Below, piece by piece: positions 8,338 to 58,678 of a stretch of 64,000 nucleotides of DNA. The stretch comes from Candidatus Aenigmatarchaeota archaeon (GTDB lineage Archaea; Aenigmatarchaeota; Aenigmatarchaeia; JACPZZ01): assembly GCA_016180965.1 (NCBI GenBank), contig JACPAF010000001.1:223513-287512 (forward strand), in the 5' to 3' direction. The notes under the pieces are model-generated. The model made no database searches. It saw nothing but the letters and a program-made list of their open reading frames with translations, and was not told the DNA's origin. Numbering within the stretch: position 1 is the first letter of the stretch; every line of letters begins with the position of its first letter. The position numbers were made by a program, and so were the translations under genes.

Positions 8338-9132
8338 ATGGTCCAACAGGATAAGCTCGGCGTCGCGGAGAATTCTATAACCAGAGGATTGACTTTTCTT
8401 AGGAAAGGGGTTTATGACGAGGTTAGTGGAAATTCCAGGAAAGCTGTTAGAAATCCAGCGGACGTTTTCGGAGCCGCAACAAACCAGTATGTAACTGCTT
8501 ATAAAGCGTTAAATGAAAGCAAACCGGATAAAGATGCGCTGCAGCCTGTAATAGACAGGTACGACAAGGCGATGGCGGATCTGGATCATCTGAAAACAGA
8601 ATTAATTGATTATGCCAAAGAGGCTGCAAACAAAATTGGCCAAAGATCCATACTTTATGTTTCGGGCGTGGAAAAGCTGGTTGTCCAAGAGGAACGTGGC
8701 AGAAAAATTTTAGGCGTCCCTTATGCGCGCAGGCCCAAGGCTGCAAAGGTAAAGGACGCGATAGATAATGCCAGAGGCCAGATAGGCAACATCGTGATAA
8801 CCACAGAGGTCAAAGAAAACGGCCATGAAGTCGGCAGCGGAAAATCTTATATTTTACACTTGCGCGGAGATCTGGCATCGATCAGAAACAATCTCAAACG
8901 GGCTGCGCTGCTCGGCGATCCCGAGGAGAAATACATTACAGGAGTCGAGGGTGATGTGGCACAGGATATGAAATCCATTGACGATTTGGACAAATACCAC
9001 AGGAACCTTTTGTCGGAGAGGTTTAAAGCTGAACAAAAGAAAGCCGAGGATAAAAGGCTGGCGAAACTTGAAAAAGAAAGGCAGCGCGACCTTCGCAAAA
9101 ACCTTAAAGAACTAAGAAAGAGGAAATGGTAA
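8338..9132 (+). CDS. paralog family protein 1 (unknown function; basic C-terminal tail)
   Basis: 264 aa. Shares the core YVSGVEKLVVQEERGRKILGVPYARRPKAA with the next gene. Lys/Arg-rich C-terminus. Confidence 0.6.
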   Translation: MVQQDKLGVAENSITRGLTFLRKGVYDEVSGNSRKAVRNPADVFGAATNQYVTAYKALNESKPDKDALQPVIDRYDKAMADLDHLKTELIDYAKEAANKIGQRSILYVSGVEKLVVQEERGRKILGVPYARRPKAAKVKDAIDNARGQIGNIVITTEVKENGHEVGSGKSYILHLRGDLASIRNNLKRAALLGDPEEKYITGVEGDVAQDMKSIDDLDKYHRNLLSERFKAEQKKAEDKRLAKLEKERQRDLRKNLKELRKRKW

Positions 9133-9824
9133 TTTTTATGAGTATTGAACTTGCAGAGGCGGACGCGAGGCGCGGTCTGGAATATATCAGGAAGGGTAAA
9201 AGCGGAAAATTGAAGGATCCTGAGTACGTTTTACAGAAGGCTGCAGAGGCTTATACGAAAGCTTCTAATGGTTTGGTTGAACCTGCGGCAGATGCGTCGA
9301 AAGATGAGAAAAAAACCTACACCAATGTTCGTTCACTGGTTGATATTTTACAAAGTGAGCTGGCTTCTTATGCAAAAGGGAAAGTTGGCGGGCTGACAAA
9401 AGAGGCTGGCGGATATGTTTCTGGAATAACAAAATTGGTTAAACAAGAGGAACGCGGTAAACGGATTTTAGGGGTTCCATACGCGAAAAGGCCGTCCGTT
9501 GCTTATGTTTCCGGAAAGATCGAGCAGGGTAAAACCTATGTAACCCAAGCTTTGGGAAAGGTTGGGGCAATGAGAAAAATTTTGGAAAATGAGGCGTTGT
9601 TGAAACCGGCCGAGAAAAACATGCTAAATGAAGCAAAGGGTGCGCTTGAGCAGGTCAATACCAAGCTTGGTGAATTGGAAACGCAGAACCAGAACGCGGG
9701 CAAGGCGGTTAAACCAAAAACCAAGAAGAAAGATGATGGCAAGGGCGGATTGCATTTACCACACGTAAAATTACCCAGTTTTAAGCGAAAACCCAAGGGT
9801 TGGCAGTCTCGCGGTGGGTTTTAA
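9126..9824 (+). CDS. paralog family protein 2 (unknown function; ends ...SRGGF)
   Basis: YVSGITKLVKQEERGKRILGVPYAKRPSVA core. Start overlaps the stop of protein 1 (ATGGTAA); alternative ATG at 9138. Confidence 0.6.
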   Translation: MVIFMSIELAEADARRGLEYIRKGKSGKLKDPEYVLQKAAEAYTKASNGLVEPAADASKDEKKTYTNVRSLVDILQSELASYAKGKVGGLTKEAGGYVSGITKLVKQEERGKRILGVPYAKRPSVAYVSGKIEQGKTYVTQALGKVGAMRKILENEALLKPAEKNMLNEAKGALEQVNTKLGELETQNQNAGKAVKPKTKKKDDGKGGLHLPHVKLPSFKRKPKGWQSRGGF

Positions 9825-9869
9825 ATACTTATCTGGTTTTAAAATTAGGATAGGAGAGGTTGATTGAAA

Positions 9870-10550
9870 ATGGCTGTAGATTATAGTAAGATTGTCGATA
9901 GTTTGAATAACGCGCTTGATAGGCTTGGTAGTTTAGGTTATGTTCCGGGCAAGGCGCCAAAAACGAAGATCGCAAGCGATCCTGTTAGGATGCTTCTTAG
10001 TGGCGTTGACGCATACACTTCTGCAAAAACAGATTTGGGCGCGCTTCCAGTGGTTGGAGTAGCAGGTGCGAAAAAAGCTGACGTTGACAGGTACAACGCT
10101 GCAGTTCAGGTTTTGGACACTGTCGGAGCGGGTTTAAGATCCGCATTCAAGGATTATGTACAGGCTGTGGGCCAAGGATTGGAAGGAAATGCAGCTTCGT
10201 TGAAAAGACAGGTTGAAAGCGAGCGCAAAGGTCCTATGAGGATTTTACCGAGATCGTCTTCATACCTTGTTAGCAACGGTTTAGACGATGCTAAGACAGC
10301 TGTCGGTTACGCGAAAGCTGAAGTTGCGGCTGTAAGAACAGCTTTTGAAGGTGCGCCTGACCTGTTGAAACCACAAGACAAAACTTACATTTCAGAGCTT
10401 GAAAAAAGATTGGGTAACATTGCGTCGTCTTTGACAAAAGAGGAAACAAGACACAACGACAAGGTCGACAGGGAAGCTGTGAAAGCGGACAGGAAAGCCT
10501 GGGAAAAGCTTTTGAAAGGAAAGCCAAAGGGCAGCCGCGGCGGTTTCTAA
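9870..10550 (+). CDS. paralog family protein 3 (unknown function; ends ...KGSRGGF)
   Basis: ESERKGPMRILPRSSSY core, ELEKRLGNIASSL, C-terminal KGKPKGSRGGF. TAGGAGAGG Shine-Dalgarno before ATG 9870. Confidence 0.6.
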   Translation: MAVDYSKIVDSLNNALDRLGSLGYVPGKAPKTKIASDPVRMLLSGVDAYTSAKTDLGALPVVGVAGAKKADVDRYNAAVQVLDTVGAGLRSAFKDYVQAVGQGLEGNAASLKRQVESERKGPMRILPRSSSYLVSNGLDDAKTAVGYAKAEVAAVRTAFEGAPDLLKPQDKTYISELEKRLGNIASSLTKEETRHNDKVDREAVKADRKAWEKLLKGKPKGSRGGF

Positions 10551-10581
10551 TTTTTTAATTAACCGGGCGCAATCGCCAACT

Positions 10582-10613
10582 GAAGCATACCGTATATTGT
10601 ATCGGTATGCTTC
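10582..10613 (+). repeat. hairpin GAAGCATACCG-tatattgtat-CGGTATGCTTC followed by TAGCTG and a T-rich tract; terminator-like
   Basis: Perfect 11 bp stem 32 nt after the stop of paralog 3. TTTTATTTTTATT follows at 10634-10646. Confidence 0.55.
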
Positions 10614-10714
10614 TAGCTGTTTGCGCCCAAGTTTTATTTTTATTCCAATTAGTTGTTTTTCTATAATTTTTTAGAAATGAAAATTAATTTAACTCTGAGA
10701 CGCCTTTGTTAATT

Positions 10715-11194
10715 ATGGTAAAAGAAAATTACGAGAGAAAATTACAGGCATTGAATGGTGCGGTTGATTCTGCAAAAAGAAGCGTTGACCAGGGCAGATA
10801 CGCAGCTGCTATAGGTTATGTTGACCAGGCAAGAGGCATGATGAAAGGCGGTAATTACAGGGGTCTTCTGACGGAAAAACACGCGATAGTAAACGGCGAG
10901 TTAAATCTAATAATGAGGCACGCACGCGACCAGGTCCGCGACCGCCTGGAGCAAGGCTATAAAACCGTTGACAATGAGCTGGCTAGAATTTCAAAGGGCG
11001 GTATGCCAACACCCAAGGCCAGAAGAACTTTGGCGGAAATGAGCGGATATGTTGACAGCCTCACAGGAACAGATATGCCCAAATCGATTTCCAAAGAATT
11101 TACGCCTGACAAAACGCGGGTGGACAAATTAAAAAAAGAGCTTGAGGCTTTGGCAACGTCGAAAGGCGGAAAAATAGACTGGGCGAAACCATGA
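10715..11194 (+). CDS. possible divergent member 4 of the paralog family (unknown function)
   Basis: 160 aa, helical and basic, similar architecture but only weak similarity to proteins 1-3. Confidence 0.4.
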   Translation: MVKENYERKLQALNGAVDSAKRSVDQGRYAAAIGYVDQARGMMKGGNYRGLLTEKHAIVNGELNLIMRHARDQVRDRLEQGYKTVDNELARISKGGMPTPKARRTLAEMSGYVDSLTGTDMPKSISKEFTPDKTRVDKLKKELEALATSKGGKIDWAKP

Positions 11195-11225
11195 ATCATA
11201 CATTTGTATGATTCGGCATCTTATT

Positions 11226-11975
11226 TTATTTTTCTATTTTTTCCATCAAAGCCTCCATTTTTTCAACGAACCGTGTCGCCTTTTCAACCATCTCGTCGAT
11301 TTTTTCCGGCGTGACGAGCTTCAGTTCACCGTGTTCCAGTTTTTTCCACGTCTTGATGACGTCTTCGTAATATTTTACGTATTCCGGCGACAATTTCCTT
11401 TTTCGTACGAAATGTATTCGCAACTGGTCAGGGACATTTTTTGGCGTCGGCGGCGACACGCCGATGCTTAACAGCGGAGCTTGCGCCGCGTCCACGACTG
11501 CGGACGACAATGCGTCCATTATTGAGATTGTGTGGATACGTTCTATGCGCAACAAACGCAAAGGCGATTGCTGTATCAAGGATTTCATAGCCTCTTTCGT
11601 TCCGGGCACGCGGCCTTCGAGCAATAATTTTTTCAGCGGTAAAAAGAATCCTGACGGGTCGTATATCGGAATGCCGTCGCGTATTTCCGTGAACGTGACC
11701 GGAGAACCGTGCCGGATGAGTTCCCAATAATCCGATAGTTTGTAAAATATCAAGTCAGTTTCGCCGCGCAGTTTTAGCAGCTTGGAGATTTTTTGCGCTT
11801 CCAGTTTTATTTCGTTGGTTGTGATTGAGTCAACTTGGTTGGTGTCGTCGAGAAGGAATATCAACGTGTCCTCTTTTCCCTCTTCGGAGGACGAAGTCAT
11901 CCAGATAGACTTTATTATGGTGGGATATTTTTTCGTTAATTTATCGATCAGTGATTTTGTTTTTTTCGTGTTCAT
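11226..11975 (-). CDS. nucleotidyltransferase-fold protein, catalytically degenerate paralog of the upstream gene
   Basis: Aligns along its length with 11972-13120 (IYDPSGFF..LLEGR..PLRLLR..HGELK). The hG[GS]...DhD motif is replaced by MTSSSEEGKEDTLIF. Start overlaps the upstream gene's stop (ATGA). Confidence 0.55.
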   Translation of the reverse strand: MNTKKTKSLIDKLTKKYPTIIKSIWMTSSSEEGKEDTLIFLLDDTNQVDSITTNEIKLEAQKISKLLKLRGETDLIFYKLSDYWELIRHGSPVTFTEIRDGIPIYDPSGFFLPLKKLLLEGRVPGTKEAMKSLIQQSPLRLLRIERIHTISIMDALSSAVVDAAQAPLLSIGVSPPTPKNVPDQLRIHFVRKRKLSPEYVKYYEDVIKTWKKLEHGELKLVTPEKIDEMVEKATRFVEKMEALMEKIEK

Positions 11976-13120
11976 TTTTTAGCCTCTTTCAACAACGATT
12001 CCAAATTCTTGGCATACAGGCGCGACGTGTAAACGTCTTTTTCGGTCACTTCGTTTAATTTGTCATTGTCGGATGCGTGCTTCATCAATTTTATTTTTTT
12101 CAGCAGTTCCAAATAGCCTTTCGACACCAGGCCCGTGTTAACCAACTCTTTTTCAACAAAATGCAGGATGTTTTTATCATTTACTCGTATTCCACGTTTT
12201 TTCAGTATGTTCCTGCAGGCTGTGAACGCCACATCATTGGATTCTTCGATCATTTCCTTTTTCTTTTCTTTTTCCAGCATGGAAAAAATCGTGTCCATCA
12301 TGTAGATGAAATCTTTTGCTTTCACAATCCAGGAATCGATTTCTTTCGCTGTTATTTTTGTCAATTCCCCATGGTCGATTTTTCTTGTCACTGCGTAAAA
12401 TTCATCCACCAAGTCGGCGTAAAATCCTGGAAGTATTTTTTTTGCGACGAAATTTTTTCGCAGCGCCGCGCCGACGTTTTTTGCGGACGGCGGCGCAATT
12501 CCATAGAACATCAATACCGCCTGCCCGGCTTCGACCATTGCGAAAAGCAAATCTGCGGTTATGTCTTCCAGGAATATTTTCCTGACGTCTTCCAGGCGCA
12601 GAGGCGCGCGCTGCATCAACATTTGCGACCTTTCAAATGTGCCGCCCATGCGACCTTCTTTTAATAATCTGCTTAACGGCTCTACATAACCTGATGGATC
12701 ATACACGGGCATCGCGTCGCGCATTGATGTGAATACCCACGGCTCGCCTGAGCGCAGCAAATCCCACCAATCTGTTAACCTGCGAACGGGCTGGAAATGT
12801 ATATTGATTTTTGTTTTTTCCTTTACAGCATCGTTTATTTCGGATATTTTTGCGCTCATTGCGGATAATTCAGCAGCGGATATATCCGTCGTGGCATCGT
12901 CGACCAAAGTCATTACGTCGATGTCCGATGTCGGTTTTGCTTCGCCGCGGGCGAATGAACCGTATAACCAGATAACCTTTATCTTATTTCCGTATATTGA
13001 AAGTATTTTAGAACAAGCCTCTTTGATGGCGTCGATAGCGGAATATGCCATAATCAATAATGAATGACGGGATTTTAATACCTGAGCAAGAAACCCGCGG
13101 GCATCGCCTGATTGAAGCAT
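11972..13120 (-). CDS. Pol-beta-superfamily minimal nucleotidyltransferase with conserved helical C-terminal domain
   Basis: VIWLYGSFARGEAKPTSDIDVMTLVDD is a canonical GS...DxD NTase motif. 382 aa. The N-terminal 23 codons overlap the hairpin at 13114-13136, so the true start may be ATG 13051. Confidence 0.6.
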   Translation of the reverse strand: MLQSGDARGFLAQVLKSRHSLLIMAYSAIDAIKEACSKILSIYGNKIKVIWLYGSFARGEAKPTSDIDVMTLVDDATTDISAAELSAMSAKISEINDAVKEKTKINIHFQPVRRLTDWWDLLRSGEPWVFTSMRDAMPVYDPSGYVEPLSRLLKEGRMGGTFERSQMLMQRAPLRLEDVRKIFLEDITADLLFAMVEAGQAVLMFYGIAPPSAKNVGAALRKNFVAKKILPGFYADLVDEFYAVTRKIDHGELTKITAKEIDSWIVKAKDFIYMMDTIFSMLEKEKKKEMIEESNDVAFTACRNILKKRGIRVNDKNILHFVEKELVNTGLVSKGYLELLKKIKLMKHASDNDKLNEVTEKDVYTSRLYAKNLESLLKEAKK

Positions 13121-13136
13121 ATCAAAGGTATGCTTC
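13114..13136 (+). repeat. hairpin GAAGCATA-tcaaagg-TATGCTTC followed by TAACTCC; family member
   Basis: 8 bp perfect stem. Overlaps the annotated 5' end of the minus-strand NTase ORF. Confidence 0.4.
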
Positions 13137-13140
13137 TAAC

Positions 13141-14523
13141 TCCTTACCGCCCGCCAGATGAATTGCACACAGTTACTATTATTCCATGTTAACTATATTT
13201 TTCTATAGGAACCTCACATAAAGGGTGTTTTAAGTGCACATTCGAAAAGTATTGATTCATGAAAGAATCGAAAAATAATATCAGAATGTACCGTTATAGA
13301 ATATACCCTTCTCAAGAACAACGTAAAAGGCTTGATTCTCAACTCGCATCATGTAAAGAATTATACAACCTGCTTCTTCAAAAATGTAAAGAAGATTACA
13401 AGGAAAAAAGCATTTCCGTAAACCGAAAAATGCTCTACAAACTTGCCAAACAATTCACAGACAATGATGAACGTTATTCAGACGTACATTCCCAGGTCCT
13501 CCAAAACGTAGCTGACAGACTAGTAAAATCTTACAAAAACTATTTTAGGCGTATTAAAGAAAAGAAATCCGGCAAGAAGATAAAAGTCGGCTTTCCTAGA
13601 TTCAAAAAATTCTATTCAAGCATAACCTATCCGCAGAGCGGGTTTAATCTAGCCGCGAATCGTCTTTTTGCTTCGAGGATAGGCAATATTCCCATCGTAA
13701 CCGAAAGATTGCCTCAAGGAAAGACAAAAACACTAACAATCAGAAGAAAACCGTCGGGCAAGTGGTTTGTTTTTTTCAGTTCGTTTGTTGATACTCCTGA
13801 GACCGAAAACACAGTTAAATACAACAAAATCGGCATAGACATGGGCATTGAAAACTTCGCAACTTTATCGGACGGCACAACAATAGAAAATCCGAGATTC
13901 CTAAGAAAATCGGAAGACACGCTAGCAAAATACCAGCGCAGAGTGTCCAGAAAAGCGAAAGGTTCTAACAGAATAAAAGCAAAAATAAAAGTTGCGAGAA
14001 TACACGAAAAAATAACCAACCAAAGAACAGATTTCCTTCACAAAACAAGTAAAATGCTGACGGAAAAATACAGCTTCATAGCTGTTGAAAAACTAAATGT
14101 CAGTAACATGGTAAAGAACCATAATCTAGCGAAAAGCATATCCGATGCTTCGTGGAACCAATTCACTCGGATGATTGGCTACAAGGCTTCAAGTGCTGGT
14201 TGCCAACTCGTTTTTGTGAATCCACGAAACACATCGCAAATATGCAGCGGATGCGGAAACACAGTAAAGAAAGAATTAAGCGACAGGTGGCACGAATGCG
14301 ATTTATGCGGTTTGTCGCTGCACAGAGACCACAATTCCGCATTGGAAATATTAGACAAAGCCACCGACGGACTGTCGGGAAGTAACGCCTTTGGAGACAG
14401 TGTAAGACCTTCTGTAAAGAAGGTCGTGGTCGATGAATCAGGAACTACACGTGTTGAGATAGACGCTGGAAACCCAGCACTTTAGTGCGGGGAGGATGTC
14501 ATTAATGTGCAAGCTTTTATCCG
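13141..14523 (+). mobile_element. IS200/IS605-family element carrying tnpB only (IS1341-like); ends not defined
   Basis: Single tnpB gene without tnpA, flanked by about 120 nt upstream and about 40 nt downstream of non-coding DNA. Boundaries were placed at the flanking genes. Confidence 0.4.
13259..14485 (+). CDS. tnpB: TnpB (IS605 OrfB, RuvC-like RNA-guided endonuclease)
   Basis: 408 aa. MYRYRIYPSQEQ N-terminus, RuvC-I GIDMGIENFATL, RuvC-II IAVEKLNVSNM, zinc finger CSGCG...CDLCG, RuvC-III RDHNSALEI. Confidence 0.9.
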   Translation: MKESKNNIRMYRYRIYPSQEQRKRLDSQLASCKELYNLLLQKCKEDYKEKSISVNRKMLYKLAKQFTDNDERYSDVHSQVLQNVADRLVKSYKNYFRRIKEKKSGKKIKVGFPRFKKFYSSITYPQSGFNLAANRLFASRIGNIPIVTERLPQGKTKTLTIRRKPSGKWFVFFSSFVDTPETENTVKYNKIGIDMGIENFATLSDGTTIENPRFLRKSEDTLAKYQRRVSRKAKGSNRIKAKIKVARIHEKITNQRTDFLHKTSKMLTEKYSFIAVEKLNVSNMVKNHNLAKSISDASWNQFTRMIGYKASSAGCQLVFVNPRNTSQICSGCGNTVKKELSDRWHECDLCGLSLHRDHNSALEILDKATDGLSGSNAFGDSVRPSVKKVVVDESGTTRVEIDAGNPAL

Positions 14524-14556
14524 TTGGAAGAGAAAAATATAATCAGTGTTTATGCT

Positions 14557-15168
14557 ATGGTAACTCCCAAAAGCGCTGCAGATAAATACGAACAGATAGA
14601 CCGACTGACGCGCACTGGAGTTTCTGTTCTAGGAAAACAGATGAGTCCGACAGCTGCGATAACATCTGCGGGAGATTCTTACACACAGGCCAATACACTT
14701 TTTGGCGGCCTCACAGCCCCGAAAAGAGGAAAAGACCAGGTTGCAGGATTGAAGGATGCTATTGTAGGTTATGCGCGAACAGCGATGCGTACACGGGTTG
14801 AAGATGTCTACAAAAAAATGGGCGATGCAAGTTATACGATTGACCGAAGAGGTTCCGAGTTACGAGGTTCCGGCATTTTAAGTTTCAAACCCGGCGCCGG
14901 CCCATTCAAAGCCTTAGCAATTGGGCGACCTTCGCCTGAAAAGGCATTGCGTTCAGTCGGCGATGCGCAAACATATGCAACTGAATCCAAAGGTTATGTT
15001 AAAGATGTTTTCAGCGCTTTCAACGCTACAGGTCTGACAGAAACCGGAGACAGGGAATTCAAAAAGGATCTCGAAAAAAGACTGGCCGATGCTGAAAAGA
15101 AGATCGGTGAAAAGAAGGCAGACCTTTGGGGAGCTGAAAGACGGAAATCGATTCGCAGGGGATATTGA
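14557..15168 (+). CDS. paralog family protein 5 (unknown function; ends ...IRRGY)
   Basis: RRGSELRGSGILSFKPG core and DLEKRLADAEKKI match paralog 3 (ESERKGPMRILPRSS, ELEKRLGNIASSL). The TTG at 14524 is in frame with ATG 14557. Confidence 0.55.
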   Translation: MVTPKSAADKYEQIDRLTRTGVSVLGKQMSPTAAITSAGDSYTQANTLFGGLTAPKRGKDQVAGLKDAIVGYARTAMRTRVEDVYKKMGDASYTIDRRGSELRGSGILSFKPGAGPFKALAIGRPSPEKALRSVGDAQTYATESKGYVKDVFSAFNATGLTETGDREFKKDLEKRLADAEKKIGEKKADLWGAERRKSIRRGY

Positions 15169-15189
15169 AGCGATTTCCAGTGTTTAAAT

Positions 15190-16107
15190 ATGCGGGATGA
15201 AATAATTAAAAAGGACGATTCGATGAACACACAAAACAAGAATAATCTGGTTTTCTTGGCGATATTTTCTGTGTTTATGCTGGTTCCCATGCTGGCTGCT
15301 GCCCAATCGAGCACAGGCGCGGTGAGCCAATCACTGATGAAGATGATCGGCGTGCCGGATTCAATTGCAACAGGCCCGCCGCAGACAATAATATTTTACG
15401 TGGTTTTGCCTGCGATTTTGATGTTCATAATAATGTATGGAATATTGGATGAGATCAAGCTTTTCTACAGGGGCGGGATCAATTTCGCGATCGCTGTTTT
15501 AGCAACGCTGATAACGATACCGTCGGGGTTGTTAGGCCAGGTTATCATAGGCATATACGGAGGCGGGCTGGCGACCCTTGCGATCATTACCGGTATTGCG
15601 ATTCTTCCTGCATTCATATCAACTTTCGGTTCCAGGATGGGGCTGCCTAATAATATTCTTGAGTTGCTGACAGCTGTTGTTTACGGTTTCGTAATGTACA
15701 TAGTTTTCGGTTTCCTTGTCGACGGGCCGGCCGGCGGAACGGGCGGAGTGTTAAAGAATTTCTCGTGGGTCAGATGGGTATTCGTAATAGGCGTTCCGAT
15801 ACTCGTTGCGTGGAGAGGCGCAATGAACAGGAATATTGGCCTTAGAATGGGATCGGAACTTGCGGTTGAAAGCGCGGAGATAAAAGCAGCGGAACAGGCG
15901 GTCACAAGATGCCAGAGGGCGTTGCGTGATTTGGCAATGGTGACCAATGCTACGGGTGCCGGACCCTCCACAGGCATAGACCCGGCCACTTACAGCAATG
16001 CCCTGAATAATGTGCAGATCATGTGCAGTTCCAAATATCCGATACCTTATTTGCAAACGCTTACACGCGCCCAAATAAACGCTTTGGCCACCAATCACAA
16101 GAGATAA
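15190..16107 (+). CDS. membrane protein family A member 1 (signal peptide ...LAAAQS, polytopic)
   Basis: 305 aa. N-terminal hydrophobic segment ending MLVPMLAAAQSSTG, then 5-6 TM helices. Confidence 0.5.
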   Translation: MRDEIIKKDDSMNTQNKNNLVFLAIFSVFMLVPMLAAAQSSTGAVSQSLMKMIGVPDSIATGPPQTIIFYVVLPAILMFIIMYGILDEIKLFYRGGINFAIAVLATLITIPSGLLGQVIIGIYGGGLATLAIITGIAILPAFISTFGSRMGLPNNILELLTAVVYGFVMYIVFGFLVDGPAGGTGGVLKNFSWVRWVFVIGVPILVAWRGAMNRNIGLRMGSELAVESAEIKAAEQAVTRCQRALRDLAMVTNATGAGPSTGIDPATYSNALNNVQIMCSSKYPIPYLQTLTRAQINALATNHKR

Positions 16108-16123
16108 TTCTTTTTTTAGTCCA

Positions 16124-16951
16124 TTGCAATATTGTTTTATGGGCAAATTTTTATTCGGGTTTATTCTGGCGCTGCTTGCGATATTTCCGTTTGCAGCTGC
16201 GCAATCCACATTGTCCGACGGAACGATCAAGTTCTGGACGACTTGGTTTTATGTGCCGGCGAAATACCTGGTTTCGTGGCAGTCCATAGTCATTTTTGCC
16301 GTCGTTCCTGTTTTGATTTCAATTTTTTTCGTGCATGAAATATGGAAGGATATAGGATTTTTCCATTCGGGCGCAGTCAATTTCTGGATACCTCTTCTTG
16401 TGGTCTATATGATGCTGCGAAACGGTTTTTGGGATTATGTCGAGTTGTTCGTGTCGAACGTGCAGATGATTCCGGCATTGGCTTTGTCGATGCTAGCCAT
16501 GCAGATTACGGGCAAGCTTAGGTCTAAAATAACTTCGTTTGGCTATTCCGGCCCGTTGGGCGGTGTATTGGCATACGCATTAGATGCGATAGGAATGGGC
16601 ATATTTTTCGGCGGATTGGGTTTTGTTGTCAGCAAGGGGCATTTAGGACCAATTGTTTACACCTTGTTTTTCGTTGGGGCTGGGGTGGGCATTTTACTAA
16701 TCTGGTGGGATTCGCATGGAAAGGCGAAGCAGGCCAAGCTGTCCAACTTGCTGGAACAATATGACGTTATAACCAAACAGATGGAACCGTTGGAGAAAAA
16801 ACTTGTCGAGCTGGAAAAGAAGAAACAAGCTGCAATCGCTGCTAAAAGGAATTTTGAAGCGTTGGACATAACTCAGGAAATGGTTGCAGTTAACAGGCAG
16901 ATAGAAGGTTTGCGTGCTGAGAGAGAGGCAATTTCCGCGGGCGCGGCATAA
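16124..16951 (+). CDS. membrane protein family A member 2 (signal peptide ...FAAAQS, polytopic, C-terminal coiled coil)
   Basis: AIFPFAAAQSTLSDG parallels member 1. C-terminal LEKKLVELEKKKQAAIAAKR coiled coil. Confidence 0.5.
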   Translation: MQYCFMGKFLFGFILALLAIFPFAAAQSTLSDGTIKFWTTWFYVPAKYLVSWQSIVIFAVVPVLISIFFVHEIWKDIGFFHSGAVNFWIPLLVVYMMLRNGFWDYVELFVSNVQMIPALALSMLAMQITGKLRSKITSFGYSGPLGGVLAYALDAIGMGIFFGGLGFVVSKGHLGPIVYTLFFVGAGVGILLIWWDSHGKAKQAKLSNLLEQYDVITKQMEPLEKKLVELEKKKQAAIAAKRNFEALDITQEMVAVNRQIEGLRAEREAISAGAA

Positions 16952-16987
16952 AAGCAAGATTTAAGATTTGGAGGAGTAACTAATACT

Positions 16988-17584
16988 ATGTTTTCGGCTG
17001 CGTTCCAGTCTCCGCCTTCCGGTTCTGTGGCATCGTCAATATTCAAAGTGCTTGATAACTTGCAAGCTCAACAACTGGTCGTGCCGTTCCTTCTAACTTT
17101 CGTGATAGCGTATGGCGTATTGGATACGATACACATATTCAGAAAAAACAGCATTAACGCGATAATTTCATTGGCAATATCATTTTTTGCGATATTCTAC
17201 GGGCCTTACGGGGCGATGGGTAAGTTTTTGACACAACTGTACGGCACTGGCGCAGTCGCTATTGTTGGTTTAGTCATGTTCATGATAATCCTCGGCGTGT
17301 TTAGTTTGGGCGGCAACCATATGCCCGGCGTAGGCATGTTCCAAAGGCTTTTCGGCATGTCCGGCGGGGTTGTGGGCGGTATCGTTATCGTAGTTGTTTT
17401 CATATTTTTGCTTGCTTCGGGCTGGTTCGAAAATGTCGGAATAAGATTGGATCCGGATACGACTGCGTTGATGATTATTATTCTGGTAATTATTGCGTTC
17501 ATTGCGATAGTTGCGCGACCGGACAGAACCAGGACATGGTGGCATCATATGTTCCCGCCCGGCGCGCAAGGCGGACAGTGGTAG
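16988..17584 (+). CDS. membrane protein family B member 1
   Basis: LVVPFLLTFVIAYGVLDTIHIF motif shared with the next three genes. Four TM helices. Confidence 0.5.
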   Translation: MFSAAFQSPPSGSVASSIFKVLDNLQAQQLVVPFLLTFVIAYGVLDTIHIFRKNSINAIISLAISFFAIFYGPYGAMGKFLTQLYGTGAVAIVGLVMFMIILGVFSLGGNHMPGVGMFQRLFGMSGGVVGGIVIVVVFIFLLASGWFENVGIRLDPDTTALMIIILVIIAFIAIVARPDRTRTWWHHMFPPGAQGGQW

Positions 17585-17659
17585 GAATTGCAAAACTTGC
17601 AAAGTTTGATCAAAAGTGAGTTTGTCAAGGAATAAAAGCTCGAAAGAAGAATTGATATA

Positions 17660-18151
17660 ATGGTTTCGGATATTTTTACGCCTTTGGTCGGAAATTTAAA
17701 CAACCTCGGTTTTTACAAATTCGTCCTTCCGTGGCTGTTTACGTTGGCCGTTGTATATGGTGTGCTTTTGAAAGTCAAAGTTTTTGGAACTGACCAGCAA
17801 AAATCGTTGACCGCTGTCATAGCTATTGTCGCGGCGTTTTTCGTTGTTAATTACACGCCCGCTGGGTTTGCGTTAGACGGTTTTTTCACTCAAGTCTTTG
17901 GTGTGGGCATTTTGATACTCACCGGCATTTTTGTCGTACTTCTGGTTATGGGTTTAGTCGGGTTAAAAGGCGAGGATATATTCAAGGCTGAGAACCTGAA
18001 AACTGGCGGCGGCATGGCTGTTGTATTATTAGTAGCATTCATAATTTTCCTGTTCTTTACGATCGGCGGAATACATATAGCTTCGGATCAGTTATCTCTG
18101 ATAGCCGTGATGATATTCATGATTGTCGCGCTGGTTTTCATAGCTAAATGA
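17660..18151 (+). CDS. membrane protein family B member 2
   Basis: LGFYKFVLPWLFTLAVVYGVLLKVKVF. Confidence 0.5.
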   Translation: MVSDIFTPLVGNLNNLGFYKFVLPWLFTLAVVYGVLLKVKVFGTDQQKSLTAVIAIVAAFFVVNYTPAGFALDGFFTQVFGVGILILTGIFVVLLVMGLVGLKGEDIFKAENLKTGGGMAVVLLVAFIIFLFFTIGGIHIASDQLSLIAVMIFMIVALVFIAK

Positions 18152-18215
18152 CCGTACGGGATGAAAAAAAAACAAAATCGATAATTTGTATAAATAAAAC
18201 TATGGAAGAATTTCA

Positions 18216-18761
18216 ATGGCAACTTTTGATTTCATCGCACTGCAAAACACGTTAAAAGCAATGGGCTTTTACGACTTTGTTTTGCCTTGGCTGTTAGCGT
18301 TTGCGATCGTGTTCGGCATTTTACAAACAGTTAAAATTTTTAAGAAAGGTGATGCGTCAAACACGTCCGTCGACGCTGTTGTTTCGCTAGTTGTTGCGTT
18401 CTACCTGACAATATTCACTCCTTATTCCGGATTCTTGTCGTCGTTCTTCAGTAAATTATTCGGAAGCTCAATAATAATGCTGTCGAGCGTTCTCGTACTG
18501 TTAATGTTCGTGGGAATATTCGGGTTTAACATAAAAGATCTTCTGTCAAAGAAGGACGGTGAGAAGACAGAGCTCACGCCGATTGGTATAGCAGGTTTAA
18601 TAGGCGCGTTTATCGTCGCAGCAATACTTTTCATCAATGCCACTTCGGGCGTGTTTTCTTTCGGCGGTTCGGACATTTTAAACGGCGATACGCTGACAGT
18701 TCTTTTGTTTTTAGGAATAATCGGCGCGGTTATATGGTTTGTTGTAAAGGGCGCGAAATAA
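18216..18761 (+). CDS. membrane protein family B member 3
   Basis: MATFDFIALQNTLKAMGFYDFVLPWLLAFAIVFGILQTVKIFKKG. About 75% identical to member 4. Confidence 0.55.
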   Translation: MATFDFIALQNTLKAMGFYDFVLPWLLAFAIVFGILQTVKIFKKGDASNTSVDAVVSLVVAFYLTIFTPYSGFLSSFFSKLFGSSIIMLSSVLVLLMFVGIFGFNIKDLLSKKDGEKTELTPIGIAGLIGAFIVAAILFINATSGVFSFGGSDILNGDTLTVLLFLGIIGAVIWFVVKGAK

Positions 18762-18794
18762 GGTTTTAAATACGTCGGAGAATAATCGTAGATA

Positions 18795-19388
18795 ATGGCG
18801 ACGTTTGATTTTATTGGTTTGCAAAACACCCTACGTTCGATGGGTTTCTACGATTTTGTTTTGCCGTGGCTGTTGGCTTTTTCAATTGTTTTCGGCATTT
18901 TGCAGACGGTCATGATATTCAAGAAAGGCGCGGACAACACAAAATCAAACACGTCTGTTGATGCTGTCATAGCGCTTGCCGTTGCTTTTTACCTGACAAT
19001 ATTCACGCCTTATTCCGGATTCTTGTCGTCTTTTTTCAGCAAACTATTCGGCAGTTCAATCATAGTTTTATCAGGAATTTTAATGCTGTTAATGTTCGTG
19101 GGCATATTCGGATTTAATTCCCAAGAATTGTTCGGTGGAACTAAATCTAAAGCGGCGATAACCATAGTCGCGTTGATACTTGCCGGTTTGTTTTTGATAA
19201 ATGCAAGCTCCGGCGTGTTCTCGTTCGGCAACGGCCAGTTAGTTAACGGCGAAACGCTGACGGTTATCGCGTTTTTCGGAATGATCGCTGCGATAATATG
19301 GTTTGTGGTAAATGACGGGAAAACAAAAGAGAAAGACGAGGATGACAAGACTACGAAAATAGACCCAAAAACGGGCAAGCCTATATAG
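18795..19388 (+). CDS. membrane protein family B member 4 (recent tandem duplicate of member 3)
   Basis: MATFDFIGLQNTLRSMGFYDFVLPWLLAFSIVFGILQTVMIFKKG. Confidence 0.55.
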   Translation: MATFDFIGLQNTLRSMGFYDFVLPWLLAFSIVFGILQTVMIFKKGADNTKSNTSVDAVIALAVAFYLTIFTPYSGFLSSFFSKLFGSSIIVLSGILMLLMFVGIFGFNSQELFGGTKSKAAITIVALILAGLFLINASSGVFSFGNGQLVNGETLTVIAFFGMIAAIIWFVVNDGKTKEKDEDDKTTKIDPKTGKPI

Positions 19389-19915: not shown

Positions 19916-20596
19916 TTACTGCTTGTTTATTTTCTGCAAAGAATCGTTTACAGCGCGCACGGATTCTATCATTGACGGCAATGTTTCTTTGAACGCTTTT
20001 TCAATCGATCCTATCCGTGCGTCTATTTGGTCGAGGTTGTCATGATATTGGTCTAATTTACCTTCGATGCCGCCCGACGCAGACGTACCGGATTCTTTTA
20101 ACGTCCGTATTTGAAGATCGACATCATGCAACCTCTCGTTAACGGAATCGAATCGTTTTTCTATCGCGTCTATCCTGAATTCCAATTGTTTCCATTTCTC
20201 TTCTACGACAGCTTCGACGACTTCTTCGATCTCTGTCGTGGACGGCGATGAATTTAATGCCACTGGTATTTCGGCCATCTCGGGCGTTGAAGGCTCCCAT
20301 TCTGTCCCGGCTTGCATTTGCGGTTGTTGCTGTTCGACTGGAAATTCAAAATCGTTTTGCTGGGCCTGCGGCTGTTCGGGAACAGCGAATCCCATGGGCT
20401 GCATTTCCTGTTGCGGCTGAGTTTGCATTTGTTGTTGGGGCTGCTTTGGCTGCGAAACAGTTTCTTTAACAGCGGTCATGACAGCTGTCCGTTCGTTGTT
20501 CATTGATTGGGAGAAATCGGAATCCTGCGCTGCGGGGCGCGGCATGTTTACAGGCATTGATTGTTTCTCTTCAGACTTCTTCTTGAACAGCCACAT
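19916..20596 (-). CDS. Gln/Pro-rich low-complexity protein with C-terminal coiled coil
   Basis: N-terminal QPKQPQQQMQTQPQQEMQP repeats. C-terminal about 100 aa are heptad-like (LEFRIDAIEKRFDSVNERLHDVDLQIRTLKE). Confidence 0.45.
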   Translation of the reverse strand: MWLFKKKSEEKQSMPVNMPRPAAQDSDFSQSMNNERTAVMTAVKETVSQPKQPQQQMQTQPQQEMQPMGFAVPEQPQAQQNDFEFPVEQQQPQMQAGTEWEPSTPEMAEIPVALNSSPSTTEIEEVVEAVVEEKWKQLEFRIDAIEKRFDSVNERLHDVDLQIRTLKESGTSASGGIEGKLDQYHDNLDQIDARIGSIEKAFKETLPSMIESVRAVNDSLQKINKQ

Positions 20597-20662
20597 AATG
20601 ATTGCCTAATTAATTTTGATTAGCGCTTAATAAATGCTTTCGCAGGCCGACTAAGCTAATTA

Positions 20663-21253
20663 ATGCACGCTGACAGTTTATATTTTGTGGCCGATTTACT
20701 CAGTTATTTTTCAATTATTTTTTTCGATTGGCTTAACCTTTTTACCGCGCCTTTTGCCAAGGGCGATTCCGATGTCCTGTGGATAATTGTACCTATATAC
20801 CTAAGCTGGCTGTTGGCCGAATATTACCAGGAAAAAGCCGGCACAAGCATAGGAAATGCGATAAGCAACGGTTTCATCGGTTTGTGGGTAGGGATAGATT
20901 GGGCGCGCCGTTTGGCGGGCGAGTTCGCGTTAACTGCGGTTTTTGCAGGCAAGGCTTCCATAACCGTGTCCATGTTCATTTACGGCTCTCTGGTAATCTA
21001 TAACGGCATGAAAGGGAGGAAACTGGCGATGCTGATCGGGCGGGTTAAGGAAGTCAGTTATTTGATGATAGTTTTTTCGCCCATAGTTTACGGGTTAGTT
21101 CCGTTGACTTTTGACACAATCATAGGCATCGTGCTGTTTTTCCCCCTGGTTTACGGAATAACAGGAATTGCAGATAAGATATTGCCGTCGCCGCCAGAGG
21201 AAGCGAAGCCTGCTTTGAAAAATGAGACGCAGCCAAACACAGAGAAACAATGA
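20663..21253 (+). CDS. hypothetical polytopic membrane protein
   Basis: 196 aa, 5-6 TM helices. No GxGD or other protease signature found. Confidence 0.4.
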   Translation: MHADSLYFVADLLSYFSIIFFDWLNLFTAPFAKGDSDVLWIIVPIYLSWLLAEYYQEKAGTSIGNAISNGFIGLWVGIDWARRLAGEFALTAVFAGKASITVSMFIYGSLVIYNGMKGRKLAMLIGRVKEVSYLMIVFSPIVYGLVPLTFDTIIGIVLFFPLVYGITGIADKILPSPPEEAKPALKNETQPNTEKQ

Positions 21254-21277
21254 AAACGCGCAAAATTGAGTTTGATC

Positions 21278-21676
21278 CTAGGCCTGTTTTTTGAAATCTT
21301 CAAGCATTTTCCTGACTTCCGAGATTGTTACGAATTGTGATTTAATCGGGTTGATCAGGTCTATGAAACCCTGTATTTCGCGAAGCTCTGTTTTTGTCGA
21401 TGCGCGTTCCATTTGTTTTGATAATTTCCGGGTGTCGTCTTCGATCTTAGACACGCGGTTTGCCAGTTCGTCTATTTTTGCGTTCAATTTGTCAGTCGAC
21501 AGTTTTGCCTGTTTGAACTGCTCAACCACGCTTTGGTCTATGTTCGATAACGTCGATTCCGAACCGCTCATCTTTTGTTCTACCAATCGCAACCGTTTAG
21601 AGTTATCATTGAAACGGCGTATCAACTCCCCGATTACTGCTTGCACGTTGGCTGGTTTCTTGTCGAAGACGGCCAT
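21278..21676 (-). CDS. coiled-coil protein, divergently transcribed from the pilus ATPase
   Basis: 132 aa, heptad-rich (KLNAKIDELANRVSKIEDDTRKLSKQMERAS). Confidence 0.45.
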   Translation of the reverse strand: MAVFDKKPANVQAVIGELIRRFNDNSKRLRLVEQKMSGSESTLSNIDQSVVEQFKQAKLSTDKLNAKIDELANRVSKIEDDTRKLSKQMERASTKTELREIQGFIDLINPIKSQFVTISEVRKMLEDFKKQA

Positions 21677-21710
21677 ATAATAGAATTTAGTTTAAAGGAT
21701 AATATAATAT

Positions 21711-23984
21711 ATGGCCTTGCAGTTTGAGTACAGTCCGGAAGATAATTCTATAAGATTGAACACGCTGGGCACTTTATACGGGTCAAGTTTGGAGGATTTT
21801 GAGGCTATAATGGCAGCGGCGATAGACAAAATTGTCGAGGTCAAGAAAGTTTCGAGAATAATCCTGGCTGAGACGCGCGAATATGAATATGACTGGGAAC
21901 AAACACGCCTGTTGGTTGAGATCGCAAATGCTTTGGACGAAATAGTGCGCGGGCGACGTTTGTTGTCTGTTACCAACATATCCATACCAAATTGCGACCG
22001 GCACACCGCGGAAAGAAGCCATAACGTGCAGCGCATTGTCATTGATTTGATGCGGCGCGACCCTATTGGGGCGTATGCGGAAGTTTTGAGAGAGATACGC
22101 AAAGTGAAAATAGAAGCGCGGAAAAATCCGTACCACGTGCAATGCTACGCGCACTATGTCAATAATTCGCTTGCGCAAATACAGCGAATAATGGAATCCA
22201 CGACTTTGATCCAAATGATCAAAGATAACGTTGCCGGTTATCACATCGGGGACCGTACACTTTACAGAGAAATATTCCACCCTACAATACGGCCGAATTT
22301 CATGTTAACGCGTTTCATGTCCGCGACGCCGAAGGAAGGGCAGGCGGTCGACCGTTATAAAATAGGCGACATAGAAGTTGAAATTTACCGCATACCGTCG
22401 AAATCGGAATTAGTTTATCACGTGATTCCTCCGGAGTTTCAGTTAACGGAAGACAAGTACATGCTGTTGGACGCTGCGAGGCGTTACATGGCTGAACACA
22501 AACCGGTTGAGACTGAATTTTCAGATCCGGAACGCGCGCGCGAAATATTCTCCAACATCGGGCGCGACATGATACGAGACCTTTCGACGAACATGGGAAT
22601 TTTTTTGAGCCCGCTTGAGATAGAAAATATTACTAAAATACTGACGCGGTATACGGCCGGGTTTGGAGTGTTGGAAATATTATTAGCTGACGAAAAAATA
22701 CAGGACATTTACATAAATTCACCGATCGGGCAGAATCCGATTTACATAAACCACGCAGACTACAATGAGTGTTCGACTAACCTAATTCCTACGAAAGATG
22801 ATGCGGAGTCATGGGCAACGAGGTTCCGCATTGCGTCCGGGCGCCCGCTGGACGAAGCTAACCCGGTTTTGGACACGGACATAAATGTTCCGGGCGGGCG
22901 GGCAAGAGTAGCTGCGATCACGAAAACCTTGTCGCCCGAGGGTTTGGCATTTGCATTCCGAAGGCACAGGGATAAACCGTGGACGCTGCCGTTGTTCATT
23001 AAGGCAGGCGCGATAAGCCCGTTGTTCGCGGGTGTCATGAGTTTTTTAGTTGATGGATCAGCATCTATCCTGATCGCAGGCGGAAGAGGTTCTGGTAAAA
23101 CTTCATTATTAAACGCGATGATGCTTGAAATTTCGCCGAACAAGCGGATACTGACAGTCGAAGACACAATCGAATTGGCCGTGGATTACATGAGGAAACT
23201 CGGCTACAATATTGAAAGATTAAAATCGCGTTCCGTGATAACGCATATTGAAACAGAGATGGCTGCGGACGAGGCGTTGCGAACGGCGCTGCGCCTCGGA
23301 GATTCATCTCTGATAGTGGGCGAAGTCAGAAGTCTGGAAGCGAAAGCGCTCTATGAGGCAATGAGAATAGGCGCGTTGTCGAACGTTGTCGCAGGGACAA
23401 TTCACGGTGAGTCGCCTTATGGCGTTTATGACCGTGTTGTCAACGATCTTGGCGTGCCGTCGACGAGCTTCAAAGCCACGGATATAATCGTGATATCAAA
23501 AATGCTTCGTTCTGCGGATGGGTTACACAAATTTCGCCGTGTTACGGAATTAACAGAAGTCCGCAAACACTGGAAGACGGATCCGTATGACGAGAAAGGC
23601 TTTGTCAACCTCATGGAATATTCCGCGTCCGCGGACGAGTTAAAACCTACGGAAATATTATCTACGGGCGAGTCGGAAATAATCAACCGCATCGCCTCGC
23701 TAACAAGGGAGTGGGAAGGCCGTTGGGAGGATGTCTGGGAAAACATACAACTGAGAGCGAATATAAAAAAAGCGATGGTTGATTATTCGATAAAATTGAA
23801 TTTTCCGGAATTGATTGAGGCGCCTTGGGTCACGCAATCGAACGAACAGTTCCATATAATTTCTTCCAGGCTGAAAGAAGAAACGGGCTACATGGATCCC
23901 AAGGAGATATTTTCCAGGTGGGATAAGTGGTTTTCTTCGAAAATCAAGGAACGCGCCCCGCGAATGTCGGCACGGGTTTTGTGA
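21711..23984 (+). CDS. type IV pilus/secretion ATPase (FlaI/PilB/GspE/VirB11 superfamily) with about 300 aa N-terminal extension
   Basis: Walker A ILIAGGRGSGKTSLLNAMM, Asp box TVEDTIEL, Walker B/His box SLIVGEVRSLEAKALYEAMRIGA..VAGTIHG. 757 aa versus about 540 aa for FlaI. Confidence 0.85.
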   Translation: MALQFEYSPEDNSIRLNTLGTLYGSSLEDFEAIMAAAIDKIVEVKKVSRIILAETREYEYDWEQTRLLVEIANALDEIVRGRRLLSVTNISIPNCDRHTAERSHNVQRIVIDLMRRDPIGAYAEVLREIRKVKIEARKNPYHVQCYAHYVNNSLAQIQRIMESTTLIQMIKDNVAGYHIGDRTLYREIFHPTIRPNFMLTRFMSATPKEGQAVDRYKIGDIEVEIYRIPSKSELVYHVIPPEFQLTEDKYMLLDAARRYMAEHKPVETEFSDPERAREIFSNIGRDMIRDLSTNMGIFLSPLEIENITKILTRYTAGFGVLEILLADEKIQDIYINSPIGQNPIYINHADYNECSTNLIPTKDDAESWATRFRIASGRPLDEANPVLDTDINVPGGRARVAAITKTLSPEGLAFAFRRHRDKPWTLPLFIKAGAISPLFAGVMSFLVDGSASILIAGGRGSGKTSLLNAMMLEISPNKRILTVEDTIELAVDYMRKLGYNIERLKSRSVITHIETEMAADEALRTALRLGDSSLIVGEVRSLEAKALYEAMRIGALSNVVAGTIHGESPYGVYDRVVNDLGVPSTSFKATDIIVISKMLRSADGLHKFRRVTELTEVRKHWKTDPYDEKGFVNLMEYSASADELKPTEILSTGESEIINRIASLTREWEGRWEDVWENIQLRANIKKAMVDYSIKLNFPELIEAPWVTQSNEQFHIISSRLKEETGYMDPKEIFSRWDKWFSSKIKERAPRMSARVL

Positions 23985-23988
23985 TAAT

Positions 23989-58222: not shown

Positions 58223-58678
58223 ATGGCTCAGCCTTTTAACAAAGGAGTTTCACCTCTAGTCGCATCAGTACTTCTCATATCATTTACCATGGCAATAGCT
58301 GCGATATTGGCGACTTGGGCCACACAATACATGACACAACAAACTACTACGCTAACCACGAAAGGCAACGAGGCTAATTGTGTTTATGCCAGGATGAACC
58401 TGGACACGTACAGTTACGATAAAACGGGCAACCAGCTGATAATGATAGTAAATAACGACGGCAGGGTCGGGCTGCAAAATTTCACGCTATTCCTTTACAA
58501 CGGAAGCGGCATAAGCCGTATCTCATTAGAGACGGATACGAGCGTTACGAACAGGCAAAACACAACGCTACCGCCCGGCGAACCAAGATCGTTTATAGTC
58601 AACGGGGTTGCGAACGTAACGAGGTTTAGGGTGGTTTCCAACTGTCCGGAATATTCATTCGTAGATAAAACGGTTTAA
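58223..58678 (+). CDS. archaeal type IV pilin (Pilin_N-type class III signal peptide), paralog 1
   Basis: MAQPFNKGVSPLVASVLLISFTMAIAAILATWATQY. Many N-x-S/T sequons. Confidence 0.7.
   Translation: MAQPFNKGVSPLVASVLLISFTMAIAAILATWATQYMTQQTTTLTTKGNEANCVYARMNLDTYSYDKTGNQLIMIVNNDGRVGLQNFTLFLYNGSGISRISLETDTSVTNRQNTTLPPGEPRSFIVNGVANVTRFRVVSNCPEYSFVDKTV

Follow-up and report, generated by a model that had tools for sequence, protein, structure and literature searches.

Two-domain nucleotidyltransferases (NTases) such as KNTase ANT(4')-Ia (1KNY, 6P01), AadA, ANT(9) and LinB combine a Pol-beta NTase domain with a HEPN-derived helical C-domain, and KNTase is a homodimer whose active sites each combine the N-domain from one subunit with the C-domain from its partner. 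In a stretch of 64,000 nucleotides from a Candidatus Aenigmatarchaeota archaeon (contig JACPAF010000001.1, positions 223,513 to 287,512; hereafter the window), two overlapping genes, here called A and B, encode proteins of the same architecture, of which A retains the catalytic motif and B has lost it. Our analysis points to A and B as probable subunits of a single enzyme that DPANN archaea encode on the chromosome and inherit vertically, a domesticated fusion of minimal nucleotidyltransferase (MNT) and HEPN of the KNTase type. It would act as an obligate A:B heteromer in which nucleotidyl transfer takes place at one site only. KNTase, whose active site is shared between two subunits, is a precedent for trans-complementation in such a heteromer, but its dimer is symmetric and has two active sites, whereas in A/B one partner is permanently dead. 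Identity between KNTase and A/B is only 23–27%, far under family cutoffs, A/B have a conserved [RK]-x3-H that KNTase does not possess, A has a predicted additional helical domain, and the A/B genes occur in DPANN archaea with no mobile-element association, unlike KNTase.

Three further groups of proteins invite comparison. The type VII toxin-antitoxin (TA) system HepT-MntA (5YEP, 7AE9, 7BXO) shares its two ancestral domains with A/B, both of whose NTase folds superpose on MntA with a TM-score on the target (TMt) of 0.5–0.6, and in both systems HEPN helix 3 ends in a conserved motif that contains a His. HepT and MntA, however, are separate small proteins with an Rx4HxY motif that includes a Tyr AMPylation site and with a patchy or mobile distribution, whereas in A/B the domains are fused within each protein, the motif reads R/K-x3-H-G-E, inheritance is vertical, and the two proteins are often one chain of ~600–690 amino acids (aa). 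Eukaryotic assemblies, namely the tandem domains of OAS2/OAS3 and the NF45-NF90 DZF heterodimer, keep a dead NTase-fold unit as a binding or scaffold partner for a related one; the analogy is conceptual and concerns unrelated lineages that have other accessory domains, and homology is not claimed. The bacterial protein GlnE (1V4A, 3K7D), both NTase domains of which are catalytic (adenylylation and deadenylylation), repeats the unit of NTase plus HEPN-derived helical domain twice in tandem, as A-B fusions do, and was matched by Foldseek at E-values of 6e-3 and 9e-2, but its sequence similarity to A/B was not detectable past the fold. GlnE has itself been given as a domesticated MNT-HEPN protein (PMC3710099).

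The closest description in the literature is that of Makarova, Wolf and Koonin in 2019, who listed a DPANN-specific cluster, cls.004259 (NEQ050), as 'MNT fused to HEPN' in a housekeeping context and termed it 'most probably a TA module' with a conservation atypical of TA modules (PMC6393860). Compared by description only, A/B match this cluster in their MNT plus HEPN architecture, in record titles that are almost all DPANN and in housekeeping neighbours, and the cluster resembles A/B in being DPANN-restricted and unusually conserved. NEQ050 was not among the 120 matches listed, nor in the supplement text of PMC6393860, and a literature search by name returned unrelated DOI strings only. The A/B family probably belongs to this 'dark-matter' cluster. 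The paper itself makes no mention of paired paralogs, of a dead partner or of A-B fusions (PMC6393860), and no description of the active/dead pairing or of the fusions surfaced in full-text literature searches; the conserved pseudo-enzyme subunit and its natural fusions appear undescribed.

An earlier note on this DNA had reported an intact NTase and a co-oriented downstream paralog overlapping it by 4 nt, with the Gly-Ser and both Asp residues gone, and had taken the two for an enzyme and its pseudo-enzyme partner. Both open reading frames (ORFs), at 11972-13120 and 11226-11975, were found on the minus strand, which also carries all A and B features given below, and at the junction (AAA AAA TGA) the ATG of B shares ATGA with the stop codon of A, making the 4-nt overlap. 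The longest ORF of gene A does extend to 13120 (382 aa), but the start was probably placed too far upstream: database homologs are 359 aa long and nucleotide similarity of the window to its relatives stops at ~13035–13053, so that M24 at 13051 is most likely the real start, giving a gene of 359 aa at 11972..13051. Gene B occupies 11226..11975 and encodes 249 aa. BLASTP aligned A and B over ~250 residues (E 1e-43), with 33% of positions identical and 55% positive, a similarity well past chance that identifies them as paralogs, and the motifs YDPSG[FY], L..L..EGR, PLRL and HGEL that the earlier note saw in both C-terminal parts proved to be conserved in the A and B families alike.

A carries YGSFARGEAKPTSDIDV, and searches of Pfam matched it to Polbeta PF18765 (E 9e-10) and NTP_transf_2 PF01909 (E 2e-9), both above cutoff. 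The Pol-beta-type NTase domain (residues 1–121; 12689..13051) is delimited by predicted secondary structure and matched MntA, KNTase and AadA in Foldseek and KNTase in PDB profile searches (E 5e-8). Its catalytic motif G31-S32...S42-D43-I-D45...D51-D52 (12896..12961) contains the hG[GS] loop and the [DE]x[DE] dyad that define the MNT type of the Pol-beta superfamily, and G31, S32, D43, D45, D51 and D52 were invariant among 38 family members. The pseudo-NTase domain of B (residues 1–109; 11649..11975) retains the fold, matching MntA chains at TMt 0.5–0.6, but G-S and D-x-D are gone; in the degenerate motif M-T-S-S-S-E-E-G-K-E-D-T-L-I-F-L-L-D-D (11844..11900) only the trailing D-D is left, of which D44 is invariant, and B went unmatched by the NTase models of Pfam, NCBIfam and PADLOC. 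Alignments, Pfam and BLASTP thus bear out the reported difference between an intact A and a motif-less B.

This loss is a property of the family. Searches of a collection of 5.8 billion proteins yielded 60 clusters for B, none of which bears a Pfam domain, and 46 for A, nearly all from metagenome-assembled genomes (MAGs) of Aenigmarchaeota or other DPANN archaea. A motif census over 85 loci showed that G-S/D-x-D was missing in all 37 B proteins and kept in 33 of 34 A proteins, the exception being truncated by a contig end, while fusion proteins had the motif exactly once (6/6); the B ORF was intact in each of 37 genomes. In a bootstrapped, distance-based neighbour-joining tree of the core shared by A and B, the A clade (99%) and the B clade (100%) mirrored each other in internal branching. 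Mean pairwise identities over 37 matched A/B pairs were 48.5% for the NTase domain, 45.4% for the helical domain and 39.0% for the C-terminal extension of A, in comparison to 47.1% for the pseudo-NTase domain and 49.7% for the helical domain of B. Between the window and its close relatives, the non-synonymous rate (dN) of B was 0.07–0.19 against a synonymous rate (dS) above 1.3, that is dN/dS below ~0.1 with dS near saturation, and non-synonymous change (pN) in B was usually below that in A. Because its identities match those of A and its dN/dS is low, B is a conserved pseudo-enzyme and not a decaying copy: the motif was lost once, early, and purifying selection acts on B no less strongly than on A.

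A and B also behave as one unit across genomes. A-then-B adjacency was found in all of the four distant contigs that an exact protein look-up retrieved and, in a scan of species-representative genomes whose loci are numbered with an L, the two genes were adjacent or overlapping in the same order in L001-L005 and most of L006-L044, with a gap usually of -4 to -62 nt when the longest ORFs are counted. These pair-bearing loci (~45) come mostly from MAGs labelled Aenigmarchaeota and Nanohaloarchaeota. The pairwise-distance matrices of A and B correlated with r = 0.95, a value reached in none of 2000 Mantel permutations (0/2000). Single-ORF fusions of 629–692 aa, with record titles that include Nanohalalkaliarchaeum, Asbonarchaeum and Nanohalarchaeota QJJ-5, occur in six species genomes and consist of full-length A, an acidic linker of ~20–30 residues and full-length B, the motif being intact in the A half only; one natural fusion lies at L037:8846-10735. 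An exhaustive HMMER search with the B profile against 1.84 billion representatives returned only 567 clusters at E <= 1e-3, and among the best 150 of these, classified by architecture, were at least 10 separate fusions of active A to dead B, invariably A then B, and 34 clusters of stand-alone dead B. The two genes are thus translationally coupled by the ATGA overlap, are inherited together and have been fused repeatedly, each time with A ahead of B. The fusions are evidence of the classical Rosetta-stone type that A and B form a physical and functional complex and, together with the shared inheritance, argue for one two-subunit enzyme and not for a toxin-antitoxin or defence cassette. The partnership of enzyme and pseudo-enzyme that had been read from one locus is therefore strongly backed by family-wide motif loss, purifying selection on B, co-inheritance and natural fusions. 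One typical pair, in L023 (JAIVYO010000115.1, 3.4 kb; 46% identity to the B of the window), was binned as 'Campylobacterales bacterium' and is most likely a binning contaminant, not a bacterial occurrence.

The C-terminal domains had been left unassigned, with a minimal-NTase ancestry suggested for the pair. AlphaFold2 monomer models built on family alignments (mean predicted local distance difference test 88.4 for A and 85.6 for B) place domain 1 of A at residues 122–262 (12266..12688), with helices 138–183, 190–202, 209–226 and 235–285, and the C-domain of B at residues 110–249 (11229..11648), with helices 126–170, 178–190, 197–214 and 223–248. In both, the models and Foldseek gave the up-down bundle of four helices, with an insert separating helices 2 and 3, that defines the HEPN superfamily. 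Foldseek searches of the PDB matched A and B to AadA, ANT(9), KNTase, LinB, MntA antitoxins, HalB and GlnE, the two-domain ANT enzymes being the matches that cover domain 1 of A, and the C-terminal half of B to the archaeal HEPN protein AF_0298 (2hsb; TMt 0.65). The best PDB sequence match of A was KNTase (E 5.5e-6 with a single sequence, 5e-8 with a profile), in an alignment that extends through the P[IV]YD..GY domain junction, and family members carry the JGI label 'predicted nucleotidyltransferase / UPF0332 family', UPF0332 being what we take to be a HEPN-type family. PDB profile searches with whole-family alignments recovered no HEPN chain. On the strength of the fold matches, the COG-type labels and the literature, the C-terminal domain is predicted to be a HEPN/KNTase_C-like four-helix bundle, which would make each protein an MNT-HEPN fusion and accords with the suggested minimal-NTase ancestry. 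A second, degenerate HEPN-like bundle appears to form the last ~100 residues of A (residues 263–359; 11975..12265): this A-specific extension matched positions 149–234 of the B-family hidden Markov model at 15–30 bits in at least 23 A proteins, has lost the His, and has E337, Y341 and Y346 invariant in the family alignment.

The catalytic motif of HEPN domains, Rx4-6H, lies at helix 3's end, and where HEPN is fused behind NTases it is wholly or partly gone, such domains being seen as substrate-binding remnants of domesticated TA systems (Anantharaman et al., PMC3710099). In the models of A and B, T-R-K-I-D-H-G-E (A residues 222–229; 12365..12388) and W-K-K-L-E-H-G-E (B residues 210–217; 11325..11348) sit exactly at this position. 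The His is near-invariant across the entire superfamily; in B, K211 and H215 do not vary and at least 90% of the proteins keep E214, and in A the Arg is conserved in less than 70%. The spacing is R-x3-H in A and K-x3-H in B, with Glu at H+2 in the two proteins, so that the canonical catalytic HEPN motif is absent. Judged by this conservation, the [RK]-x3-H site of both proteins is clearly still under selection. The most invariant stretch of the whole system is the domain junction of B, Y-D-P-S-G-F-F-x-P-x-K-K-L..G..P-G-T-K-E-A-M (residues 105–130; 11586..11663), defined by its invariant columns among the matched pairs and containing the basic residues K115, K116 and K127 that are missing from A.

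We consider the obligate heteromer introduced above the probable explanation of these results. By analogy with the two-subunit site of KNTase, the pocket of A may be completed, or given its substrate specificity, by B; the junction of B (KK...GTKE) and its K-x3-H would supply basic or binding residues, and its dead NTase fold could serve as a scaffold. As the acceptor, the 3' end of an RNA or the side chain of a protein is likelier than a small-molecule antibiotic, and we propose a role for A:B in housekeeping or lineage-specific physiology, not in addiction or defence.

Several observations weigh against this interpretation. The predicted template modelling score of both monomers was ~0.5, which leaves the relative orientation of the domains uncertain, and Foldseek E-values were modest (~1e-3). 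The Pfam HEPN model PF05168 scored below threshold, in few members only (best E 0.001), and the tree grouped A with B at a bootstrap of only 62%. The strand of A that aligns with KNTase E76 bears N83/H85/Q87, of which H85 and Q87 are conserved, so that a third catalytic carboxylate was not located and even the activity of A is one that we infer, although the invariant D51-D52 might stand in for it. KNTase residues E145/K149, when mapped onto A/B, aligned to non-conserved positions, and this mapping was dropped because the alignment past the domain junction is unreliable. The near-invariant His at the HEPN active-site position exceeds the needs of a passive binding domain. A and B lie 0.6–1.4 kb apart, with 1–3 small ORFs between them, in four loci (L016, L018, L027 and L028), and physical contact between them is argued from genes, fusions and co-evolution. 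Neighbouring genes are without annotation, which makes the substrate a guess.

A more far-reaching version of the heteromer, which we regard as conceivable but rather unlikely, is a former TA pair that has been 'married' for good and has become a core DPANN-specific enzyme nucleotidylylating RNA or protein, an asymmetric assembly of one live and one dead NTase fold with three HEPN-derived bundles in which the retained, non-canonical [RK]-x3-H would still bind, or perhaps cleave, RNA.

The earlier note had instead read the pair as a toxin-antitoxin- or defence-like module, which in its type VII form would make the HEPN domain of B, by itself or within a composite HEPN(A):HEPN(B) site, a latent RNase that A silences by AMPylation, as MntA does with HepT. 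This is unlikely. It draws on the MNT and HEPN ancestry, the Foldseek matches to chains of MntA/HepT complexes, the basic-x3-His conserved exactly at the HEPN catalytic position and the label given to the DPANN cluster by Makarova et al. (PMC6393860), and the NTase core of A matched both NCBIfam MntA_antitoxin (E 4.6e-8) and, over residues 32–98, PADLOC PDC-S09/PDC-M05A. The NCBIfam score was 32.9 bits vs a cutoff of 60, however, and B matched no PADLOC or NCBIfam model, so that the two components which define PDC-S09/PDC-M05 are not both matched. The motif is R/K-x3-H and not Rx4-6H, with Glu at H+2 in place of the Tyr that is AMPylated in HepT. Neither family had relatives on IMG/VR viral contigs and B had none on PLSDB plasmids, where A found ANT(4')-Ia only, at 23–27% identity. 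Vertical co-inheritance (r = 0.95) across a phylum-level group, conserved chromosomal neighbourhoods, covalent A-B fusions in at least 10 clusters and the noted conservation of the cluster, atypical of TA modules (PMC6393860), likewise speak against addiction or defence, and the module proposed from one locus is not supported in these stable chromosomal contexts.

The insertion sequence (IS) element that had been cited beside the pair is present, but as TnpB only and with no bearing on A/B. It is an IS200/IS605-type element (13259..14485, plus strand; 408 aa; NCBIfam guided_TnpB, E 1.6e-89), outside the A/B system, inserted into the divergent intergenic region between A and a gene for a 214-aa coiled-coil protein, with flanks at ~13052-13258 and 14486-14523 and no TnpA seen. 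Close relatives (L005/L009, L008 and L010) have the same gene order without TnpB, the window having ~1.4 kb of extra DNA, and Rfam found nothing near the A/B locus or TnpB. TnpB is thus an incidental, lineage-specific insertion.

Improbable, too, is the view that the two proteins share an operon only, with A a self-sufficient homodimeric NTase and B a separate, non-enzymatic HEPN-type protein for binding or regulation. Textbook KNTase does act as a homodimer, intact short and long forms stand alone in loci labelled Woese-, Pace- and Parvarchaeota, and the four loci with separated genes would suit this view. It would leave unexplained why full-length A-B fusions recur, why starts are ATGA or overlapping in most loci with a mirror-tree r of 0.95, and why the entire NTase fold of B is conserved at 47% identity though catalytically useless.

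It is very unlikely that the pair consists of an ANT(4')-type enzyme of resistance to aminoglycosides or other small molecules with a degenerate duplicate. The best PDB and plasmid matches are KNTase/ANT(4')-Ia, with the same two-domain architecture and with residues 9–215 of A covered by tblastn on the plasmid gene, but NCBIfam ANT_4p_I scored 31.7 bits against a cutoff of 350, identity was 23–27%, and KNTase E145/K149 were not recognisably conserved in a region where the alignment is unreliable. The family is moreover confined to DPANN-type MAGs (567 clusters in 1.84 billion representatives), with no plasmid or virus relatives of its own. The last alternative, a chance tandem duplication with B a decaying copy, accounts for the loss of every catalytic residue of B but is refuted by a B that is intact in 37 of 37 genomes, conserved like A, with dN/dS below ~0.1 and a 100% clade as old as that of A; the earlier note had named a chance duplicate unpaired elsewhere as fatal to its own reading, and the search of other genomes found the pair to be a conserved unit.

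Neighbours of the pair on relatives' contigs include diphthine synthase, FtsZ, ThrRS and PCNA. In many Aenigmarchaeota the genes beside the pair, whose order and orientation vary, encode arrayed small membrane proteins, coiled-coil proteins, a FlaI/TadA-type ATPase and a T2SSF-like protein; this linkage does not hold in Nanohalo-type or fusion loci and is taken as a lead only. Of these recurring neighbours only the ATPase and the T2SSF-like protein are recognisable, the neighbour clusters c1, c4, c18, c25, c3, c5 and c2 having no Pfam, NCBIfam or PDB matches. The scan for promoters and terminators was of bacterial type and uninformative for an archaeon. An inverted repeat with a 10-bp stem, TGAATCATAC-ATTT-GTATGATTCG (11192-11215), lies exactly between the convergent ends of B and the gene for a 162-aa protein, where it may terminate transcription in both directions or bind a protein.

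In the window, two paralog arrays without Pfam or NCBIfam matches flank the pair (8338-11194 and 14524-19388), and the same families stand beside it in many Aenigmarchaeota loci. They comprise coiled-coil proteins ending in RGGF/RRGY-like tails (8338-9132, 9126-9824, 9864-10550 and 14524-15168), the related 162-aa protein (10706-11194) and six small multi-pass membrane proteins (15190-19388). Beyond them, a FlaI/TadA-type ATPase of 757 aa with a long N-terminal extension (21711-23984) and a T2SSF/FlaJ-like polytopic protein (23989-26061) are preceded by coiled-coil proteins, for example at 19916-20596 on the minus strand, and the region 19916-26061 looks like an archaeal type IV filament-like locus. 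Such a locus was found within 5–10 kb of the pair in L002-L010, L014, L015, L030 and L039, with differing gene orders. A 151-aa protein with an N-terminus resembling an archaeal class III (type IV pilin-like) signal peptide, MAQPFNKGVSPLVASVLLISFTMAIAAILATWA, is encoded at 58223-58678 on the plus strand, and other members of its family (cluster 26) are encoded close to the pair in L016, L018, L019 and L043.

Other Aenigmarchaeota (L045-L080, e.g. L046:9096-11077) carry a sister, type-2 pair in which a short protein of ~284 aa precedes a long one of ~375–410 aa and G-S/D-x-D is intact in both members. Two co-oriented genes without annotation, for proteins of ~584 and ~603 aa (e.g. L046:5494-7248, L045:7207-9018), always lie immediately upstream of this pair, and the window's type-1 pair and type-2 pairs were never found in one MAG among 80 loci, a comparison made by accession prefixes and classes in MAGs that are incomplete. 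Loci labelled Woese-, Pace- and Parvarchaeota also have intact short and long forms. Among such loci there is a further group of proteins of 517–631 aa (P0105, P0106 and L069:9239-10792 on the minus strand), which begins with an N-domain without G-S/D-x-D ('GVSLLPP...LLIDDSD') followed by an intact long-form NTase-HEPN, with another C-terminal domain of ~90 aa in P0105 and P0106. These two were considered as A+B fusions and rejected, a dead NTase-only N-domain before an intact long form being another architecture, and their type looks like a second, independent combination of a dead and a live NTase fold. From the sister pairs and the long proteins with a dead and an intact part, NTase-HEPN pairing is a theme of the superfamily, in which the combination of intact and dead arose at least twice.

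In summary, lineage-specific conserved genes are very few in DPANN archaea, and comparative genomicists had singled out the MNT-HEPN fusion cluster for a TA-like architecture that goes with housekeeping-like conservation. In lineages of the Aenigmarchaeota and Nanohaloarchaeota type the family takes the form of a co-evolving active/dead pair that is repeatedly one chain, which turns a vague 'TA-like' annotation into a testable model of an asymmetric heteromeric nucleotidyltransferase with a pseudo-enzyme subunit. The pair provides a clean prokaryotic case of a pseudo-enzyme kept after duplication, and cautions that not every MNT or HEPN match is a defence or TA system. If the reading as a TA pair married for good were true, one of the very few DPANN-only families that are widely conserved would gain a function, which might be tied to the FlaI/FlaJ-type surface-filament locus that lies beside the pair in many Aenigmarchaeota.

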